Part shown: one piece after another, positions 1 to 36,500 of the stretch
How the letters are laid out: every line of letters starts with the position of its first letter
Position numbering within the stretch: position 1 is the stretch's first letter
Source: Zootoca vivipara
Lineage: Eukaryota
DNA length: 64,000 nucleotides
Direction: 5' to 3'
Assembly (NCBI RefSeq): GCF_963506605.1
Contig: NC_083278.1
Span: 36,580,001-36,644,000, forward strand
Notes under the pieces: model-generated
The model's input: only the letters and a program-made list of their open reading frames with translations
Told to the model about the DNA's origin: nothing
The model's database searches: none
Translations under genes and position numbers: made by a program

Positions 1-474
1 TTCTATACAAGATCTCAAAGCAGCTGTTTTATTACAGAAAAATTTCAGAAACAGACTGGAAAGGGAAGTTGCTGAATTGGAACTCATTACCAAGCTTAAG
101 ACCATGGAGCCACCTGGGATGAACAAAGACATAGGATTCTTATCTCATTATGCATGATCAAGCTTTCTTTAGCACCTCAGCCCTTGCTCCCCCCCCCCCC
201 CCGCAGGACCTATTGCAGTCATCAGCAGTCGTTAACAGCCATCAACAGGTTTACCACTCCTATCAGCCCATCTCCCATTCCCACCCACCCCCACCACCCT
301 CTGAATATACATAAGGGTCTGGCTCTTCTGTTTCAGTGTACTGTATCTGAAGAAGTGTGCATGCACACGAAAGCTCATACCAAAATAAAAACTTAGTTGG
401 TCTTTAAGGTGCTACTGAAGGAATTTTTTTATTTTGCTTCGACTCAGACCAACACGGCTACCTACCTGTAACTA
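1..474 (+). mobile_element. 3' end of a Penelope-like retroelement (GIY-YIG endonuclease C-terminus plus terminal region); continues off the window
   Basis: Frame 2..157 reads SIQDLKAAVLLQKNFRNRLEREVAELELITKLKTMEPPGMNKDIGFLSHYA*, with the R..E..I..L.T..P.G.N pattern of PLE GIY-YIG. It is followed by a hammerhead motif and the TTAGTTGGTCTTTAAGGTGC end. Confidence 0.85.
343..380 (+). ncRNA. Minimal type-I hammerhead ribozyme motif (Penelope-associated)
   Basis: GTAT-CTGAAGA-A-GTGTG(CATG)CACAC-GAAA-GCTC-ATAC: core boxes, stem I GTAT/ATAC, stem II 5 bp, palindromic AGCT stem III; predicted cleavage after C376. Confidence 0.75.
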
Positions 475-1602
475 TTAATATATATGTTTAAAAGATATTG
501 CCAGTCTAGGTGCTATTTAATTCTGTGCTTCAATTACAGTAACATCAACTAGTTATGTGCTTTTCTCTGATTAAGAATTCATGCTGAATACTAAAGCTCA
601 ATTACTTGTGAGGAAGTTCCAACATCATCATCTTCTCATGTGTTACACCTAAGACTCTGTTGTCCCTCTTTCTCCTGTTGTTTGCTTTCTCACACCCAGT
701 CTTTTTTGTTAGTTGGCAGGATTCACCTAACCAGCCTTCTCAATGGAAGTTCTCTGCAAGGATGTCTGCTTCCACAATGGAGCTTTCCCCCACTCTTCAG
801 ATCATGCACCCCTTCACCCTACCCCCCAAAATGGCTGAGAATAATGAGCACTCATCCGAAAAGTCACACAAGAAAGAGAAACATTAACTAGTCAAAAGTA
901 GTGGTCACAGCTGTCAATATTAATTTGAAATAGAAAGCACTATGTAATTTAGATAACCAGACAATTTCAAGAGAGTAGTTTATTTCTAATTCTAAAACTT
1001 TGGCTAAGTTCAGTACTGAGAGAGGAACAGCAGAGTCTTTACTCCAATGGTCAGCACAGTTTAACTTTTCACATACAATCAAAACCAACCTTAAGCATTT
1101 GGGTGGTGGTGATTATTATTTTTTAACTGCTGCCTCCCACCCATCTATTAGAGATTCTTTTTGTAGGTTTGGCAGGCTCTCTTCATTTATTCACCCTGAC
1201 CCTGTGAAGTCCTGCTGAGGAAGTTCTACCCTATGCTATTCCTAAAATCAAGCCAGGTGGCTTCTCCTTACACAATGTTCTCTGATGAAAATAATTACCA
1301 AGTAGGAAAAATATGTGTCTATTGCTTATACACCATCAAAGGTAGAAGTGTCATCCATATATTTATTTTGCCATGAGTACATGAAGAAGAAACACAATGT
1401 AAGTTAAAACACAGTTCATGTACAAGCATTGAAATGGTGCCCCTCACCGGCTCACCTACTTTTGGAACTCAAAAAGGATGTCCTACTCAAAACTAGCAAA
1501 CTTCCATGTAGGAACTTGTTGTGTAACTAGGAATCTTTGTCCACCAATTGCACAGCCCTAGACCTACTTGATCATCAACAAATATAAAACAAAAATGCTT
1601 AC

Positions 1603-1656
1603 CCTATCACCTGGCGGTCCCATTTGGCCAGGGGGACCAGGTAAGCCTGGAGATCC
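1603..1656 (-). CDS. COL12A1: COL12A1 exon ~58 (COL2 helix), 54 nt
   Basis: ctgtag|GGATCT...GATAGG|gtaag; [18 protein letters not shown]. Confidence 0.95.
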
Positions 1657-4600
1657 CTACAGAAGAAGAAAAATATTAATCAGAGAGAATTATTGAGTTA
1701 TGCAATACAAGACACACATTTGAGAGTACCAACAAGCATAGAGGCAGAGGTGATCTGGTTGACACAGTTGACTTGGACTATCAAAAAGCTTTTGACAAGG
1801 TACATCAGCAAAGACACCTGAGTAAGCCTAGCAGCCACAGAGTAAAAGGAGAGGTCCTATTCTGGAGCAGGAACAGGTTACGTAGAAAGAATCAGAGAGC
1901 AGGGATTAAGGAACAATTATCCAAATGAAGGGATGTGGATAGTGAGGCCTCTGAGCCTGAGATTCTTTTTGTGTGTGGTGGTGTCCAGATTTTCTGGGAC
2001 TTTGATGCCTTCTTTGTTTCCTTAAAACCTAGTCCCATTTCCCAGTACCAATTCACAACTGATACATGATGTGGATCTGCACTTGTGTGCTCTTGTTTTA
2101 TTATTTTGAAGTTCAATAGCATTTTGTCTCATCTGTTGAAGCGCAAGTGAAACTAAACAGAAACTTATGCATACCAGGCTACAAGTGAGAACTTAATTTA
2201 TGTTAGCACTTATGGGAAGTGTGCAGCATAAGTAGCATGACCATATTATTATTTTTTAAAAAAGCAAACTTACTGAGCGACCAGGTAGTCCTGGCTCTCC
2301 AGCATCACCTTTCATCCCTTGACGACCCTAGGAGGAAATACTGCAAGTTTTAGAAGGTGCCATTCATCATGCAAACTGGGCTGGGAAGACTTGGAGTGAT
2401 TCCCCCTTGAATCCCAGCCCCACAGTGTACAGCCCATCGCATTCACCAGACTGGGGGGCTTCTGGGGAAGACTGGACTGCTTCTTCCAGCCCCTTTGTCA
2501 TTCTTTCCTCTGGTTTACCTACACAGCTTGCAACACATGATTTAGTTTATCAGAATACAGTGACGTGATTAACTATCAGAAAATAGTTCAGAGAATGCCA
2601 GATAATTGCCTAACCTTTTGAAAGCAAAAGAATTTATCTGAAAAGACACAGCAATGTTCCTTCTAAATCACCACAATAGCATGGCTATTACCATATTTTT
2701 GTGTAATCTGCCAGTATTGCAATGCTTATAAATATGATGTCATGTGCTAAAGCACTTATTCCCAGTATTTTCTACTATATGTGATGAAGAATGTCAAAAC
2801 ACAATAGTTTAAGAGTATCCGAGAGCTCTAAATATGGTATGCAGGCTATCTTGCACTCTCCAAAAACTAGAATGCCTGTTTACTCACTGGTTCTCCTGTA
2901 ATGGAAAGTCCATTTGGCCCCTGTGGTCCTGGTGGTCCTTGAGGGCCTCTAGGTCCTACATCTCCATGAGCGCCAGGTGGCCCCTTAAAGTAGAAAAAGA
3001 GAGAAACCCATTTGCTAGCTAGCCTTTTATTCTTCCAAAGTGGTTATCTTAAAGAACATGCGTAAAAGATGGAGTCACATAATATGTTTTCACAAGGTGA
3101 CAGCATTTATAAAAGGGCTGTCTAGAAATCTGAGGGTTTCACTGTGTTTCGGCCCTCTGCCAAAACTTTTTTTAGTGCATTCAGAAACACTGGTAGCTAT
3201 CAGCTGAAGTAAAACTTTGCCTTGCTAGTGCACTTGTCACATTGTAGCAGCTTTATCAAAATATTATAAAGTTTAAAGGTATGAAAGATGATAAGCCACA
3301 AGTGTCGGCATTATTGCTTGGTGGCATTATTTGATACAAATATTGGTGCCTCCATTGTGATGTTGGCAAACACTGCCTCAGGTTCCTCCACAAAATTTAT
3401 ATGATGAACCAACCCCACATGACTTCCTGGAACAGGGAAGAACAATGCATGCAGCAGAACTGACATCCTTTCTTTTATATCTTCCTCACATGTGTACTAA
3501 TGATAGAAACTGAAGGTAATTGAAAGGAAGCAAAGTGAGATACAGATACAGTATTATAATTTCACATAAATGAGGTTGATTTCAGAGGGAAAACTGTCGC
3601 AGAGTGAATTCTCAATAAAATTACTTCTCCCTGGTGTGTGTGTCTATATGGTACAGATATTTGCAACCATGTTTCTTGCATTCACAGTATACTAAAATGT
3701 AGCGTATGATGTGGTCCTAATACATATAGAACTAAATACAGATACTTAAACTTGCACCTTTAAATACTTTGTTAAAAGTCTCTTTTTTAAAACCAAAGGG
3801 AGGATACAAAGCAGTTACAAAACAATCCTGTGTACGTCTGCTCAGGAGTAAGTCCCGCTGATTTCAATAGGACTTACATCCACGTAAGTGTGTATTTTAG
3901 GCAGATACTCACAGAGGGCCCAGTTAAGCCTCTTTCGCCTCTTGGTCCCTTAGCACCTGGGCCTCCCTAAAACAAAAACATGCAAATAATGAGTATAGAT
4001 AAATGGGCAGATAGACATGGAAGTCCAAAATCATATATGCATGCAAATATTACTTCTCGCAAGTAGCTGAATGGTGAAGCAGGAGGTTTTGTCTGGGCTC
4101 ATTCAATGCACAAATAGGGACTAACAAACTTTAGAACAACATATTGTGGGGCTGTGGGGTTCAAACTGCACACTACAAATCTATGATAAAAATACTAAAA
4201 ACAACAAAGAAAGCTACGAAGTCTAGCTGTGGTTTTTCATCAGACTTGGCAGTTATATTGTTGCCCAATGTACACACAGTGATTATTGCCAGTGCATCAA
4301 TACTGCTGTAAAGGTTTCAGTAACACTTTGTGGTACCTAGAAAAGCCAATTTTAGCTCCCAATAGTACAACCAGCATTGCTGCCATAGTCATGTGTACAG
4401 TTATTGTTGTAGGAATGTGTTGGGTAGTAACATCACCATGGTGACAAGAAGCACTCCTCCATTGCACAAAAACAAAAGAAAATCGACATGCACGAAAGCC
4501 CACTGCCTGGGCTGTTTTTAAACATTTGCTAATAATTTTTAATACAGTAAAGAAATTGTGAATATATACCTCTTCATGCTGCGCGTCTATTACCATATAA

Positions 4601-7600
4601 CTCTCTACAAATATAGTGTGGAAGGGTATCTGCTCCCACACAGTAATGTCTCACTATTTCAAGAGAAAGATCTTACTTTTAAAAATACACTTTTACTTTG
4701 AATTGGTGCGCACTTCCCCTTCTGCAGTACATTCAACAACAAATTTATCATTGTCCTTCCTTAAATTACCTCTTAGGAGTGAAATTAATCTGACCAGAAG
4801 TGTGATAATACAACCTTGTCAGTTTCACCACTTTGTTGTCTTGCTTGATAGCAGTAGAAGTCACTGCAGTTAGGAATAGAGGGAAACAGCTCCCCCCCCC
4901 CCCCGGCGACACTTCTACCCACCTCCCCCAATACTTTTATATAATTATCAACAACCAGGCCTCCTCATTTGGCTCACCAGCCCATTTTGGCCATATGCAG
5001 TGCTTCAGACTTGCCACCAATCCAAATGCAAGGTTTCTGAAGTGCCCATTGTCAGGAGGACTTCAAAGTGCCCTACAGGGCTTTTTTCAAGGGACCCATT
5101 TCCTTACTCCTGTGCTAGAGCATCAACAGCCAAAAGCTAATTCTGGTGCTGCAGCTAATTTGGCTCCCTATGCTAGCGTGAACAGAGAGATCATCATCAT
5201 TGATCTCTGCTTCCTGAAGTCATTGGAGTTCTGTGGATTCCAGTTTGTTAATCTGAGGTACTCTACAGAGTCACAGGTCTGGTAATCACAATGCAATAAT
5301 TTTGCTTACAGCAGGTCCTGGAGGTCCTGGAGGTCCCACACTGTCTTGTGTGCATGTGCAAGCGTTTGGTAACGATGGGCATTTCGCTTCATCCCGCTGA
5401 AAATTAAAGGACAAACACCTGTCATTTCCCTGGAAATTTTTTTTAAAAGGGTGATCACCAACAGAATGGTTTCAAATATGTTTTTTTATTGTCTGTAGCA
5501 TGTTTAAATTATATTTTTAAGGGCAGGCAGACAAAGAGAGAACTGAGACTCAAGGTTGCCTGGGAACCATGATGACTGGTGTGGAAGTCTTGCTGCTTAG
5601 TCCCAAATGCACATTGCTCATGGATGGAGCAAAATACTCAGCAGATGTTTTGCTACACTTTTTATGACTTCCTATATTCTAGGACTTATCCTTAGGACTA
5701 AAAACAGATTTAGATAAATGGATTTACCCATACACATAGTAATATGAATTAAAGAAATTCAGGTTGCTTATGTGTGCCATAAGGGGTTTCTCTAAAGGTG
5801 CATCCAGAGTAATAACTTCCATATAATCTGTGACTGATATGAGGAAAAATTCAATGCTGTCATCCTGCTTCTGAAACAGTTAATAATCCAACAGAAGTGT
5901 CTGAGAGCAGAAGAGAAGGATAAACAATATTCTCCAATCATTCTTTCTCCTAGAAGTCCCCTGTGCCACTTTCTGGAGTGTCCCCAAGCCTCTGTAACAG
6001 ATTTCCAGGGCAGCTTGGGTTTCAGAAGGAAGGTAGTGTCAGAAAACCATGTTGAAGAACAAAAAAAGAGGACACATTTGCCAACTTTTACTTTTAACTA
6101 TGGATTGCCATGACTCTACCAATGAAAAAGAGGATGTGTCCTGGAAAAAGAGAGCATATGTCTACTCAGAGCAGACACTGTTTGCACTCATTTGGGAAGA
6201 GGGATATTGAGTTTTCTTAAACAAATGAAAACTTTGGGGCAGAAGTCTAAAAGAAGTTGCAAGTCTCAAAATGGTACTGAAACAAACAAAAAACATGGAT
6301 AACTTTAATAAGACAGTGAACTGCCCAGCATATTTTAGTAGAAATAGTTCTTCGGGGCACAAGGGTTCAATTTGTTATTCTTGTAAGACATCTCTTTTTC
6401 ATCTTTTCTCCTCCCTCTGGGCAGAAGTCACAGAGTGTCCTCCACTTGACCATCGCTCAACCATTCTGCCTTCCTTATTTGAACTTTTCTTCCACCTTTA
6501 GCCCATTACAGATTAGTGCAAATTCACCCTTTTGAGTTTTGCCTGCTAATTTACAGTACACTAGCAGTAACTAAAACATGACTATTTCACCATCCCTTAG
6601 CCCAACTACCTCATTATTCCATCTCTAATTCGACTCACACATACACTCACTTAAAAAACCCCAACAGCATTTATGGGGATATGTATGAGTAGAATACGGA
6701 AAATTTAATGCTTATTTTAAAAATAAACCCTCAAATCTTGATATATGGGAAATATATCTGTAAAGGATAAAATTGGACTGAAATGTGGCCTGACTGTACC
6801 TAAGTTCAAAATAGTAGCATTTATAATACGGCTCTGGTAAAGTATCTGCATTCTTGCCCTCTGAGTCTCAGGATGATTCAGTCACAGAAGCAATTTGTCA
6901 TTCCCAACAGGGACCTTTCAAACATATTCTTCTGCATTGTCCTCTGTGTAGGACTGGCTCAGATTGTTGACATGAGGTTTTAAAATTTATATTTACCCTA
7001 GAAGGAATGTCACAGCATCTATCTCTGCTAGTCCAAACGGCATTACATACAAAGTCGAAACTTTGGATCTCTAGCTGTAAGGCAAAAACACAAATGTCTT
7101 CAATGTTACATCTGTAGGAAATTTCAAAAACATAGTCATGCATGGCAATATTATGCAAGATACATTTTTGCCATTCAGCCAAGGCAGTAAAAATGCTATT
7201 CAGCAATATCCCATTGATGGCTACAGCATCAGGCAACATTGAATAAATGGTAACTTAATTGCTTAGTTTGGATCACATACATTTTTAACAAAGCACACGT
7301 AAGATTTGTTTAATGCAATAAATGTCTTGCAGATTTATATATTAGTACATAAAAATAGCAGTGGGAGAAAGTTGTTCAAATAATAGAAATATTTTCCCAG
7401 CCAAAGACTATGTGACTCAAGCCCTTTCATGACTGAGTCATGCTACTGTTGACTCATATGTTGAGGCTACTAGATCAGAAGGCCAACTTCTATTCTATGA
7501 CAAATGTCATGGGAATATCTTGATTAAGCACACTGATGCATTGTGGGTGGTTTCGATGCGAGGCCAGCAAACTCTAACTTGTTCATTTACATTTATATTT

Positions 7601-9520
7601 TGGTCTGAGAATACTCCAGTCAACTTCTCAGAGCTACAGCTTTTGGTTCATATGGTAATTTTGACTGAAACTTACCATTTACACTGTAACAAGAAGCAAC
7701 CAAGTTCATCCATCTTGGACTGAACATTTGTCCTAAGTCAATATAAAAGGAACTGACTTCATGGCATAAAGTTGGCAGATGAGTAGTTTTTGTGATATGT
7801 GACAGTGTCTTGTGTGTAACCCAAAGAGCATTATTTGGTGAAGTAGGGTATCACTATGAAAACTCATGCCACAATATATTTGTTTTGAAGATGCCACTCA
7901 AGTCTTGATTGTCATTAAGTATACCCTAAACCCTGCTCCTGCCAACAAAAGCATGTCAAAGTGCAAGTAGACAAATAGGTACTGCTCCGGTAGGAAGGTA
8001 AACAGCGTTTCCGTGCACTGCTCTGGTTTTGCCAGAAGCGGCTTAGTCATGCTGGCCACACGACCCGGAAGCTGTACCTCGGCTCCCTCTGTAATAAAGT
8101 GAGATAAGCGCTGCAACCCCAGAGTGGTCCGCAACTGGACCTAATGGTCAGGGGTCCCTTTACCTTTTTAAACATTGTAATAAGACTCTTAATAAGGATT
8201 TCAAAATATATTTTGTATGTGCTTGGAACTGATAAAAGTAAAGGTTGTTACTTACTGTTGCTGTTTTCCTGTCACCTTTCTGTAGTTTACCCAGTATTTC
8301 ATAGCCATCAGTTGTGATATTTCCACCCTCTTTGATTGGTTTGTCCATTATTTCAAAGCAGTCAATGTAAATCTTAGCATTTGTGGGAGTTACAACAATA
8401 TGAACCTGTAGAAAAATTATTAGAAAAATAACTAAATGCATGTATGTTTTTTATACACCTTAGATTTGCTGTTTAAAGTTATAAACTGTTTTGAAGGTAT
8501 AGGGGCACTGATCTAGGCATGGGTCCTCCACATGCAAGGGCTTCTTTACTAAGAAAGGCAACAGCTCCATATACAAAGTTGCTCTTGGGACTTAAAAGTG
8601 GGTGCCCAAGTTGGTGAGCATTGGTCCAGGCACTAAGGTCTGGATCAAGGTATGTAATTATTTATACAAATGGTTGAGGTGGCTAAGACCAACTATGACC
8701 ATATGAGTAAAACATTCTCGCAAAATATAGATAGAAGAATTTAAGTGAGGGTGGGTTTTGTTTTCTTCTTGTCCCAGAACTTTATTTTTCCATTTTTCCT
8801 TTCCCCACAACAGTGGTTGTATTTGAACAAAATGGGCTCACGCGCTCTCCTCACCCCTCTCCTCCTCTGGCATGACCACAAGGAAATCAAAAGCTTCCAC
8901 TTCTGTTCTGAGATCAACAACAGTTTAGTGTGTTGTCCAAACCCCAGACTGCAGACTGCAGTTAAATTTAACTATGGCTAATAAAAATAAGACTAGCTCA
9001 TCAACTACTTCACCATGGTTTGAAGTCAGCATGTTTCCACTAACTATAGTTAATAATAATCAGTTGTCTAGATTTGAGCAACATGACAAAACGACAGGTA
9101 ATCAAAAGTGGACGGGAAGGCTTCCAGATTCCTTCTCACAGCAAAGGTGCAGAAGCTGGGAGAGCACACAGGCCTGGACAAAAGCTAAGCTCATTGTTGT
9201 AATGTTAAATATTTTTGTGGTCCCTAAAATATGGTTTAGCATTATTTCTGCAGCTGTCCAATGTCTTGGATTTAGCTACAGCCAGTAGAAGTTCAAATGC
9301 ACAAGAGTTCCAAACACCTTTCCCATTCATAGAAACTGGGTGAAATAGATGGGATGGGGTGGAGAGGATAAGGTTCCTCATTTTTACAATACTAGACTGA
9401 GAACTTGAAGCATTAGATTTACTTATTCATAATCTTTTGGGGGGGAAACTGTGCTACCACCACATACTAGCATTTCACAAAAGGTATACCAAGAGTTCCA
9501 TTTTGCATCTCTCTTATCCA

Positions 9521-33500: not shown

Positions 33501-36500
33501 TGGTCATAGTGAAAAGACAGGATTAAAATATGACTAATAAATATTATTCGCCATCTCAACAATACCGTGTCCCTTATGACACATACCCCTTGAACTATTC
33601 CTACCATTTTGCCTTCCACTCTTTGGACTAGTGTACTTATCTACTTGATTCCCACTGTTAAGAAAAAAAGTTATTTCCATTCTGGATAACTACAAAGTAC
33701 AAATAAATGAATATCTGCACAAATAAATGAACATCTGTAGGGACTTCAACAAAGGAAAAGCCAAGTCTGCCAACTTTATAAGTGATTTAGCATTACTCTT
33801 GCATAATTCTTCACAAATGAGAAAACCAACGTTGTTTTACTTACTGGTTTTGCCACTGCCTGTCATTCGTCCCCCTTCACCTTCTGCATATATGGATGAA
33901 ACTGTAACACTATAACGTGTCTCAGGTTGCAGCTTCTGTAGGACAACACTGTTCTGCCTCCCTCCTACTGTGGTCTAAAAAACAATGGAATGAAATGTAA
34001 ATTGAAAGGGCAGGCGGCTAAATTCCAAAGATGCTGAAAGGATACAGTTTGTATATACTACAAGTATACAAGTTTCTGTTTTTCAGACAATACTGTCTGC
34101 CTAAGTCCTTCAGTGGATTAAAGAAAAAATACCAGAATTGCATTAGTCATTTGTTAAACCCATGTGAATAAAATTTTAAATGTTGAATGATCTGAGCTCT
34201 TTATGGATCGTCTTTCTTATTTCTACATATTAGTGAGTACAGATCTCCAAGTCCTCAATCTACAGCTAAAGGGCATATAAGGCCAATTCTGGTACCCAAA
34301 GAAAATTAACCTTGATGTTTATTGGAACAGCAAAACATGATGATTCCCACATTGTCCCATGATCTAAATGCTTTGTCTATGGGCTCCAAAGAAATATCTT
34401 CTGTTGTGGCCAGTTGGACAGATATTGTCAGCATTTACAAAGACCAGACGCTACAAAGTTCCTACATAAAAAGCATTTCCATAAAGAGAAAAGCATGTAC
34501 AAGTAATAAATGAACAAGTAATATAAACACACTAGGAAGCTGTGAATACACACAGCAAAATAAAAATACAAGAGTCCTGTTGGAGTAGAACAAATGACTC
34601 TCTAGTCAGCATTCTGCTCCCACAGTGACCAACCATATTACATACAATTGTGACACATGACAATTTAAAATAATCTGCATGCTTTTTCACTGTGGTATGT
34701 CAGAAATCTGCTATGTTTGAAAGAGCCTTTGGACAGAAAAACCCCAGTAAAAAGCAATCCTTGGCAACTGTTTGTTCTGCAGGCTCTGAGAAAGTGATAT
34801 TTGCTGGATTACATCTGAAAGACCACCATGAGTCATCTTGTGGGTTCTACTTATACAGGAAACAAATCCACTTTCTTTGATTTTGTAATATAAATACTTT
34901 TCTGCAGAACTGTAGAACATGAAAACAAAACTATCTGACAAGCTCATGTTTTCAAAAGCGGATATTTGTTCAGGAGCGCATTGCTGCTTTCCCCCATGAG
35001 AGAATAGTTTCAGAGTTGGTTACCGATTGTTCAGCACCATCGCCAGTTGTAGGTCGATAAGTGATCCTGTACCGCTGCACTCGTCCAATGGCAGGATCCC
35101 ATTTGACCGTCAGGCTATTGGATGTTGCATTGTATACCTGAAGGTTTCTTGGGGGACCTGTTGGAGCTGAAATGAATTTATGAAAGGGTTGTTTAGCAAA
35201 GAGATATAACAAACAACATACAATGGGTATCTGAAGAAGCGTGCATGCACATGAAAGCTCATGCCAATGACAAACTTAGTTGGTCTCTGGAAGGTGCTGC
35301 TGGAAGGATTTTTTTTTAACATATACATGACATTACTCAAAATCAGCAGCAGCCTCATTACCTTGGAATAACAATACACATATAGGGGCCTGCTGAGAAC
35401 AAAATCTACCCAACTGCAGAATTTGGGCAAGATTATATAAGACATATATAAGAAGGGGCAAAGGAGAATTGAATGGAAATGTTGCGTAGCGCTAAACATG
35501 ACTAATGGGGAGTAGAACATCACCAAATATACAAAAGTTGCTATTAATTCACCAAGTTGTCACTTTTTAAAAAAGCCACCCTATCCTTTGTATGAGTGGA
35601 AAGTACTTCAGTGGACACAACTTTTTTCTTCTGCCTGCATCACCTCAAACCACACACCCTCTGAAAAGCCTGCTGAAGTTCAGGCAAACCTCCAGAGCAA
35701 CACCCCACAATGCATGACAGAACCTCAAGAAGGGGCAAAGCCTGTGTACAGACAGGAGTACTTTCAGCAGTAGAAAATAAGGTAGTGGTATTTTCCCAGT
35801 AGTGATGGTGATCTCGGGGCAGGGGTGGGGGGACAAAGTGGCAGTGGTGAATTGGGGGAACTCTAGGATGGCAGAAGCTCTACAGGTGTATGTGTTAGGA
35901 TCTCCTACTCGTGAATGGCACCATTGCCTCTGCCTCTCTCCCCTTTTATGAGTCACCCCTAAGTATACTATATAGAAACATTGGCTTCTCTGCATCCTGT
36001 CTTGGCTTGAACTAGCTCTGTCTTATAGTATCTGTATAATCCTCATATATAAAATATTATTAATGAATTCAGGTTCTTACCTGCTGTTGTCAGAGGTACC
36101 TCGGGCACTATAGGAGGGGGAGAAGCACAAACAGGGCAAGTTTGCATTAAAAACATGTCTTTCATTTGAATACTATTGTTACAAATTGTAATCCATGTAT
36201 GAATGCGTTTCAGAATTTCTTACATGTGGTCTCACTGCCAATCAGTTCATCACTCTCTGATTCATCGGGATAAATTGCAGTAACTCCAATCTCATAGAGT
36301 GTGTCTGGGTTCAAATTTTCAAAAACTAGAGTATTTTCATCACCATTAAGAATTGTCTTTGGAAGTGACGGGGGTGGGGGGAAAGAAAGAAAGTTACTCA
36401 TTGAGTCAATATATTTAACAATTAACATTTTTCATGGACTAGAACAAATAATTTATAAACATTTTACTACTTTTTGAAACTAAGTTGTATTGCCTCTCTT

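Follow-up and report, generated by a model that had tools for sequence, protein, structure and literature searches.

A hammerhead ribozyme motif of an abundant Penelope-like element lies antisense in a lizard collagen intron and is most likely inert

When a hammerhead ribozyme motif is found inside an intron of a collagen gene, does it belong to the RNA of that gene, and could it cut it? The question is raised by positions 343-380 of a 64,000-nucleotide stretch of the Zootoca vivipara genome (NCBI RefSeq assembly GCF_963506605.1, contig NC_083278.1, positions 36,580,001 to 36,644,000 of the forward strand), here called the window. An initial annotation had described an intact minimal hammerhead at the end of a Penelope-like element (PLE), and had proposed that this copy could be a latent catalytic RNA in COL12A1. 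We find that the motif is a real and ordinary member of a published hammerhead class. It belongs to the pLTR of an abundant PLE, present here as a truncated, solo copy antisense within the collagen intron, and we hold with high confidence that this copy is inert.

The motif lies on the plus strand and has the layout of a minimal type I hammerhead; hammerhead numbering makes C376 the residue C17, after which the cut is predicted. Stem I comprises 4 pairs (343-346 with 377-380), the core boxes are CUGAAGA (347-353) and GAAA (369-372), and the cleavage triplet is CUC, of the NUH type; both boxes and the NUH triplet of the minimal PLE hammerheads (min-HHRs) are therefore present. A354 is an extra nucleotide between A9 and position 10.1. 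It precedes the G10.1-C11.1 pair (G355-C368) of stem II, which has 5 Watson-Crick pairs (355-359 with 364-368) and the loop CAUG. Stem II and its loop form a perfect 14-nt palindrome (355-368, plus strand) that is pairable between two copies. At 15.2-16.2 stands the loopless palindrome AGCU (372-375), unchanged in 81 of the 81 in-register copies described below. Boxes, stems, extra A and AGCU had all been annotated as such and agree with the sequence letter for letter, and a general hammerhead scan of both strands of the window returns 343-380 as its sole match. The ATG in loop II also opens an 11-codon frame (361-396) that stops before the main ORF.

Motifs of this kind were defined in the pLTRs of PLEs, reptiles included, where a monomer was inactive and dimers or trimers were weakly active (PMC4209133). 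The extra A10 of CChMVd lowers the cleavage rate moderately (PMC3705267). The earlier statements that this class needs dimers and that an extra A after A9 is tolerated in a viroid are thus borne out by these sources.

What carries the motif is a 5'-truncated PLE insertion (1-468, plus strand) that starts about 10 bp before the window and consists of the end of the ORF, the 3' UTR/pLTR and the tail. It represents the last ~480 bp of the element, aligning with the 3' end of the full-length form, and a first look through the genome with window positions 1-480 gave 4,367 candidates, of which the top copies are 93-98% identical. The C-terminal 51 codons and the stop of an RT + GIY-YIG ORF occupy 2-157 (plus strand), as judged by frame and by alignment to the ORF end of a relative, L097. 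By itself this 51-aa fragment has no Pfam GIY-YIG match; its alignment is to the closing residues of a 925-aa RT + GIY-YIG frame at another locus. The frame closes at 155-157, 185 nt upstream of the motif, in keeping with the distance of about 190 nt first given. Next come a variable part of the 3' UTR/pLTR (158-342, plus strand), the hammerhead, and a conserved downstream block with the Penelope 'tail' (381-468, plus strand); in the alignment to the full-length element, the ORF opens with an ATG that comes just after the tail. The insertion is bounded by the 3' copy of a 14-bp target-site duplication (TSD; 469-482, unstranded), whose 5' copy lies at L001:1477-1490 and whose first 6 nt also match the element tail. 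An anchor downstream of the hammerhead has 32,833 matches genome-wide, and the exact 38-mer of the motif has 13,219 copies (control, 0).

The relative at L097:1575-4349 (minus strand) offers a natural, uninterrupted 925-aa stop-to-stop frame in which Pfam RVT_1 and GIY-YIG both score above their cut-offs; its family may still be active. The frame carries a CX4CxxC linker between RT and EN. Linkers of the form CX2-5CxxC mark Neptune and Nematis elements (10.1101/2021.04.23.441226), of which only Neptune has been reported in vertebrates (10.64898/2026.07.22.740005), and the element is likely to belong to the Neptune clade, as judged from this linker, which Nematis shares. The pLTR position of the hammerhead is seen at L092, where an RT-EN unit lies between two copies that are 3,000 bp apart on one strand. 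At L093 (G000:C1:2777821-2779652), four head-to-tail units of 598 bp, each an internally deleted assembly of pLTR, ORF start and ORF end, carry the exact hammerhead; this array is retrozyme-like, and cis dimers could form there. Among L061-L153 there are many copies whose 5' portion is inverted, frequently by folding back at the stem II palindrome or by joining through the 4-nt stem I homology.

Is the motif constrained within its family? Using the downstream anchor we picked 114 distinct copies, retained the 81 that are in register over the motif and left out 33 that are truncated or rearranged. A genome-wide look at core and stem conservation had been suggested as a check, and 63 of the 81 pass our test for an intact motif, a result that reports on master elements and not on the window copy. 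N7, the free core position, is the most variable (13 of 81 differ, equivalent to one or two changes at the master level); elsewhere in the core, 0-3 of 81 copies differ at each position, except for the CpG at G12 (6). Sixteen sister-subfamily copies reach the ORF end. Their identity to the window copy is 99.8% over the hammerhead, 67.0% over the UTR and 82.8% over the ORF end, these 16 being interdependent members of one or two subfamilies; over 381-430 it is 99.3%, with 25 nt of that block being the search anchor.

The genome also contains an older and decayed family, in which the core is retained but the stems differ. In the older-family alignment, 85.7% of cells pair and double changes occur at 4 of 9 pairs. 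Only 9 of 500 shuffles reach its covariation score of 0.266 and slid controls stay at or below 0.108, in an alignment of 12 rows that contains few independent events; 6 of the rows were retrieved with a pattern biased toward stem II pairing but not toward stem I. The stem II loop of this older family is often T-NN-A, and one copy, L221, has a perfect 16-nt palindrome there. Taken at the level of sequence, these patterns support a constrained, functional fold in master elements. They say nothing on the window copy: since its intactness is common to 13,219 identical copies, it is no sign of selection at this locus.

What the constraint serves is a separate matter. The conserved block runs 50 nt past the hammerhead, so constraint may serve protein binding, RT start or a promoter instead of catalysis. 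The motif would then be kept for RNP recognition, RT start or promoter activity and would seldom or never cut even in active elements. The conservation over 381-430 fits such a role, as does the lack of a sharp 5'-end pile-up at 377 described next. So do two published observations: core mutants of the anole PAc element insert normally in vitro, the ribozyme being dispensable for insertion there (PMC11167929), and Naiad PLEs proliferate without hammerheads (10.1101/2021.04.23.441226). Against it, the core is kept in two diverged families, the stems covary and N7 varies, which is the pattern expected of a catalytic fold. We consider a purely noncatalytic role unlikely, though an alternative to be taken seriously. 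As far as the window copy is concerned, it is compatible with our preferred reading of an inert passenger.

Were cut RNA a common template for new copies, a pile-up of 5' ends would be expected at 377. Across the genome, copies start 86 times at 370, 45 at 375, 60 at 376, 83 at 377, 74 at 378, 27 at 379, 16 at 380 and 90 at 382, where two mismatching bases were required upstream and each count is less than 0.3% of the anchors. There is no spike at 377 among these positions, and most copies that start in the motif region are inversions or slips. Simple TSD-flanked stubs make up 6 of 60 copies at 377, compared with 6 of 183 at the seven positions used as controls (p = 0.077); the 60 are a non-random sample of the 83 copies at 377, and copy ends are blurred by microhomology. 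An early contrast of 6/39 with 0/36 (p = 0.026) weakened with 20 more copies and more controls. It is doubtful that the hammerhead cuts in vivo at low frequency and that a few 3' products are retrotransposed as TSD-flanked stubs of 60-100 bp starting at the cut. If that were so, these stubs would record in the genome a cleavage in vivo that the literature examined does not show for metazoan PLE hammerheads.

The vicinity of the predicted cut is also a landing site for other elements. Helitron-like elements, so labeled for their hallmarks, are inserted between the equivalents of window A377 and T378, one base 3' of the predicted cut (for example at L313, L329, L330, L333 and L336). They have a 5' TC, a 3' hairpin followed by CTAG, and no TSD. 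Among 30 of the copies starting at 378, 11 loci have one such end, and both ends are seen in 5 of these 11. Genome-wide, 22 of their junctions fall at A377/T378; of three further AT sites compared in this region, one has 4 and two have none. This probably reflects a target-sequence preference.

Folding calculations bear on whether the motif can cut at all. The AGCU helix between two copies is worth -2.5 kcal/mol and the intermolecular duplex of the 14-nt stem II palindrome -25.2 kcal/mol. In longer plus-strand contexts stem I is essentially unformed in four of four cases, with a pairing probability of at most 0.01. Given a weak AGCU, an unformed stem I and a strong stem II palindrome, a naive dimer may misfold; in these models the stem II palindrome could nucleate dimers or trap them. 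An engineered tandem dimer is predicted to be capable, perhaps, of weak cleavage in vitro.

Could the window copy nevertheless be transcribed on its own strand, from a pLTR promoter or as an antisense lncRNA, and cut itself in trans with identical copies, so that collagen expression is affected? Promoters have been reported in PLE pLTRs (PMC6765202). Family RNA is abundant, with ~2,400x depth over the motif in run X13, so trans partners exist. We searched about 6% of each of three RNA-seq runs (X13, X14 and X15). Most of the X13 depth is from other copies: 92-93% of reads over the motif continue into the unlike sequence of other loci, and none of the three runs has any depth over the unique flank of the insertion (506-837). 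Plus-strand-type depth of 1-3x occurs at ~840-1250, where it is not joined to the element. Signal of this type, at 1-8x, is seen within collagen introns at ~840-1250 and ~1670-1980, the latter reading like what we take to be a LINE RT fragment. No pile-up of read ends at 376/377 is listed in the three runs, fragmented RNA-seq being a weak test of this. A trans reaction would moreover depend on the weak AGCU helix, against which the stem II palindrome would favor an inactive dimer. We regard such cutting as highly improbable.

Nor does the window supply a partner in cis. A BLAST search of the full unit against the window and 40 kb upstream found, besides the window copy, only a damaged one at 35227. 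The window copy is thus solo, with its target duplication, and the nearest other copy is damaged and 35 kb off. That second hammerhead (35227-35264, plus strand) has a stem II mismatch and is likewise antisense to the collagen gene; it lies in a short, damaged pLTR stub of the sister subfamily (35227-35310) that adjoins an FN3 exon.

A chance match to a loose descriptor is less probable still. A search of window positions 1-3000 against Rfam gave 7 matches at E <= 10, none of them to a hammerhead family, and the folding energy (MFE) of the motif is ordinary (z = -0.44), yet both are expected of a motif without stem III. A 26-mer pattern matches the window twice (the copy at 343-380 and the damaged one, at 35231) and 100 shuffles not at all. 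Genome-wide, a general min-hammerhead pattern has 23,229 matches against 3 for the reversed control. Coincidence is further opposed by the location in the pLTR, by the presence of four features diagnostic of the published class and by the covariation across families. In its favor, another repeat family (L191-L220) fits the core pattern without any stem I. We rejected this family as a relative: it has a stem I of 0, a non-palindromic stem III and no tblastn match to the PLE protein. Its sequence holds CUGAUGA...GAAA and a 4-bp hairpin, it accounts for most of the 600 core-pattern matches listed, and the match is likely a chance fit to the descriptor.

The host gene decides the remaining possibility. 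The insertion lies in a collagen intron of 1,717 nt (1-1602 in the window, minus strand) that extends past the window start and holds the element in antisense, ~90-105 nt from its 3' splice site. The adjoining exon (1603-1656, minus strand) encodes Gly-X-Y repeats and is delimited by its borders and by RNA-seq. Gly-X-Y exons with AG/GT borders flank the insertion on both sides on the minus strand, with an FN3 exon further on. In X15, 195 reads join L001:1384-3102, skipping 1,717 nt with CT..AC ends, and their first mates fall on the plus strand in 184 cases and on the minus strand in 11. The same joint has 1 read in X14 and 0 in X13. A lookup of the unique intron sequence among RNA data sets listed none containing it, which carries no weight in either direction. 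These ends and mate strands place the transcript on the minus strand, with the intron spliced out. The name COL12A1 fits the FACIT architecture, and we use it as a provisional label; PDB searches with the host gene returned generic collagen and FN3 matches.

Placement within a collagen intron, as first annotated, therefore stands; what had gone unmentioned is that motif and gene lie on opposite strands. The pre-mRNA holds only the reverse complement of the motif, in which there is no CUGANGA and no GAAA, and the motif is no part of the collagen RNA. Although core and stems are intact and the collagen gene is expressed in X15, the proposal of a latent ribozyme that cuts collagen pre-mRNA when dimerised is already refuted by strand, quite apart from the solo copy with no cis partner and the spliced intron. 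As a feature of the collagen gene, the hammerhead is without importance, an antisense passenger in a repeat.

The picture that emerges is of a truncated, solo insertion of a very abundant Penelope-like retrotransposon, whose pLTR hammerhead lies antisense in the collagen intron and owes its intactness to the youth of the copy. In active tandem elements, as the literature leads us to expect, the motif would likely cut multimeric element RNA after C17, weakly, and would need an AGCU helix formed jointly by two copies, help with folding from the element protein, or both. Our data suggest that family constraint acts on these active master elements, and that nearly all inserted copies were made from RNA uncut at the hammerhead site. 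In the anole, the PAc hammerhead requires the protein of its element for cleavage, and no RNA-seq reads end at its cleavage site (PMC11167929). The present family could be a useful system for testing whether minimal PLE hammerheads cut in vivo, since its RNA is abundant and it offers more than 13,000 identical motifs, tandem arrays and a naturally open RT-EN frame.

How does the locus compare with known systems? The HH9 and HH10 hammerheads and the CPEB3 ribozyme are host intronic ribozymes: sense-strand, low-copy, conserved across amniotes or mammals, and active as monomers. The motif studied here shares with them its location inside a vertebrate intron. Unlike them, it is antisense, off the transcribed strand; it is far from low-copy, with 13,219 exact copies; and it is without a stable stem III.

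The resemblance to the PLE min-HHRs is much closer (PMC4209133). It extends to the type I core, the extra base between A9 and G10.1, the G10.1-C11.1 pair, the palindromic 15.2-16.2 without loop 3, the 4-bp helix I, the pLTR position and the prevalence of solo truncated copies. Min-HHRs have been reported in fish Neptune, Poseidon and Xena elements, in turtle and in snakes (PMC4209133). Stem II has 5 bp here and 7-8 bp in Schistosoma families, and the 13,219 exact copies exceed the ~4,000-9,000 motifs reported for coelacanth and Xenopus (PMC4209133). The exact motif was not found in the two supplements of that paper that our search covered, and may already be in print. Titles in the literature that we searched include none on a PLE hammerhead in a collagen intron.

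PAc (Poseidon_Ac) of Anolis carolinensis is a PLE that resembles the present one in coming from a lizard, in carrying its hammerhead in the pLTR, and in having a 3' tail and an AT-rich target. Its ORF starts inside the hammerhead (PMC11167929), whereas here the main ATG lies just past the tail, and the CX4CxxC linker of Neptune/Nematis type sets our element apart from it. Non-LTR retrozymes likewise have a type I hammerhead from a PLE pLTR and an intron location, with ~43% of copies intronic in Xenopus (10.64898/2026.07.22.740005). They are noncoding tandem arrays (10.64898/2026.07.22.740005), and the window copy is a solo ORF-end fragment: retrozymes repeat a hammerhead-bearing unit two or more times in tandem, and the window copy has one, within its TSD. 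The array of four 598-bp units at L093 resembles retrozymes more than the window copy does.
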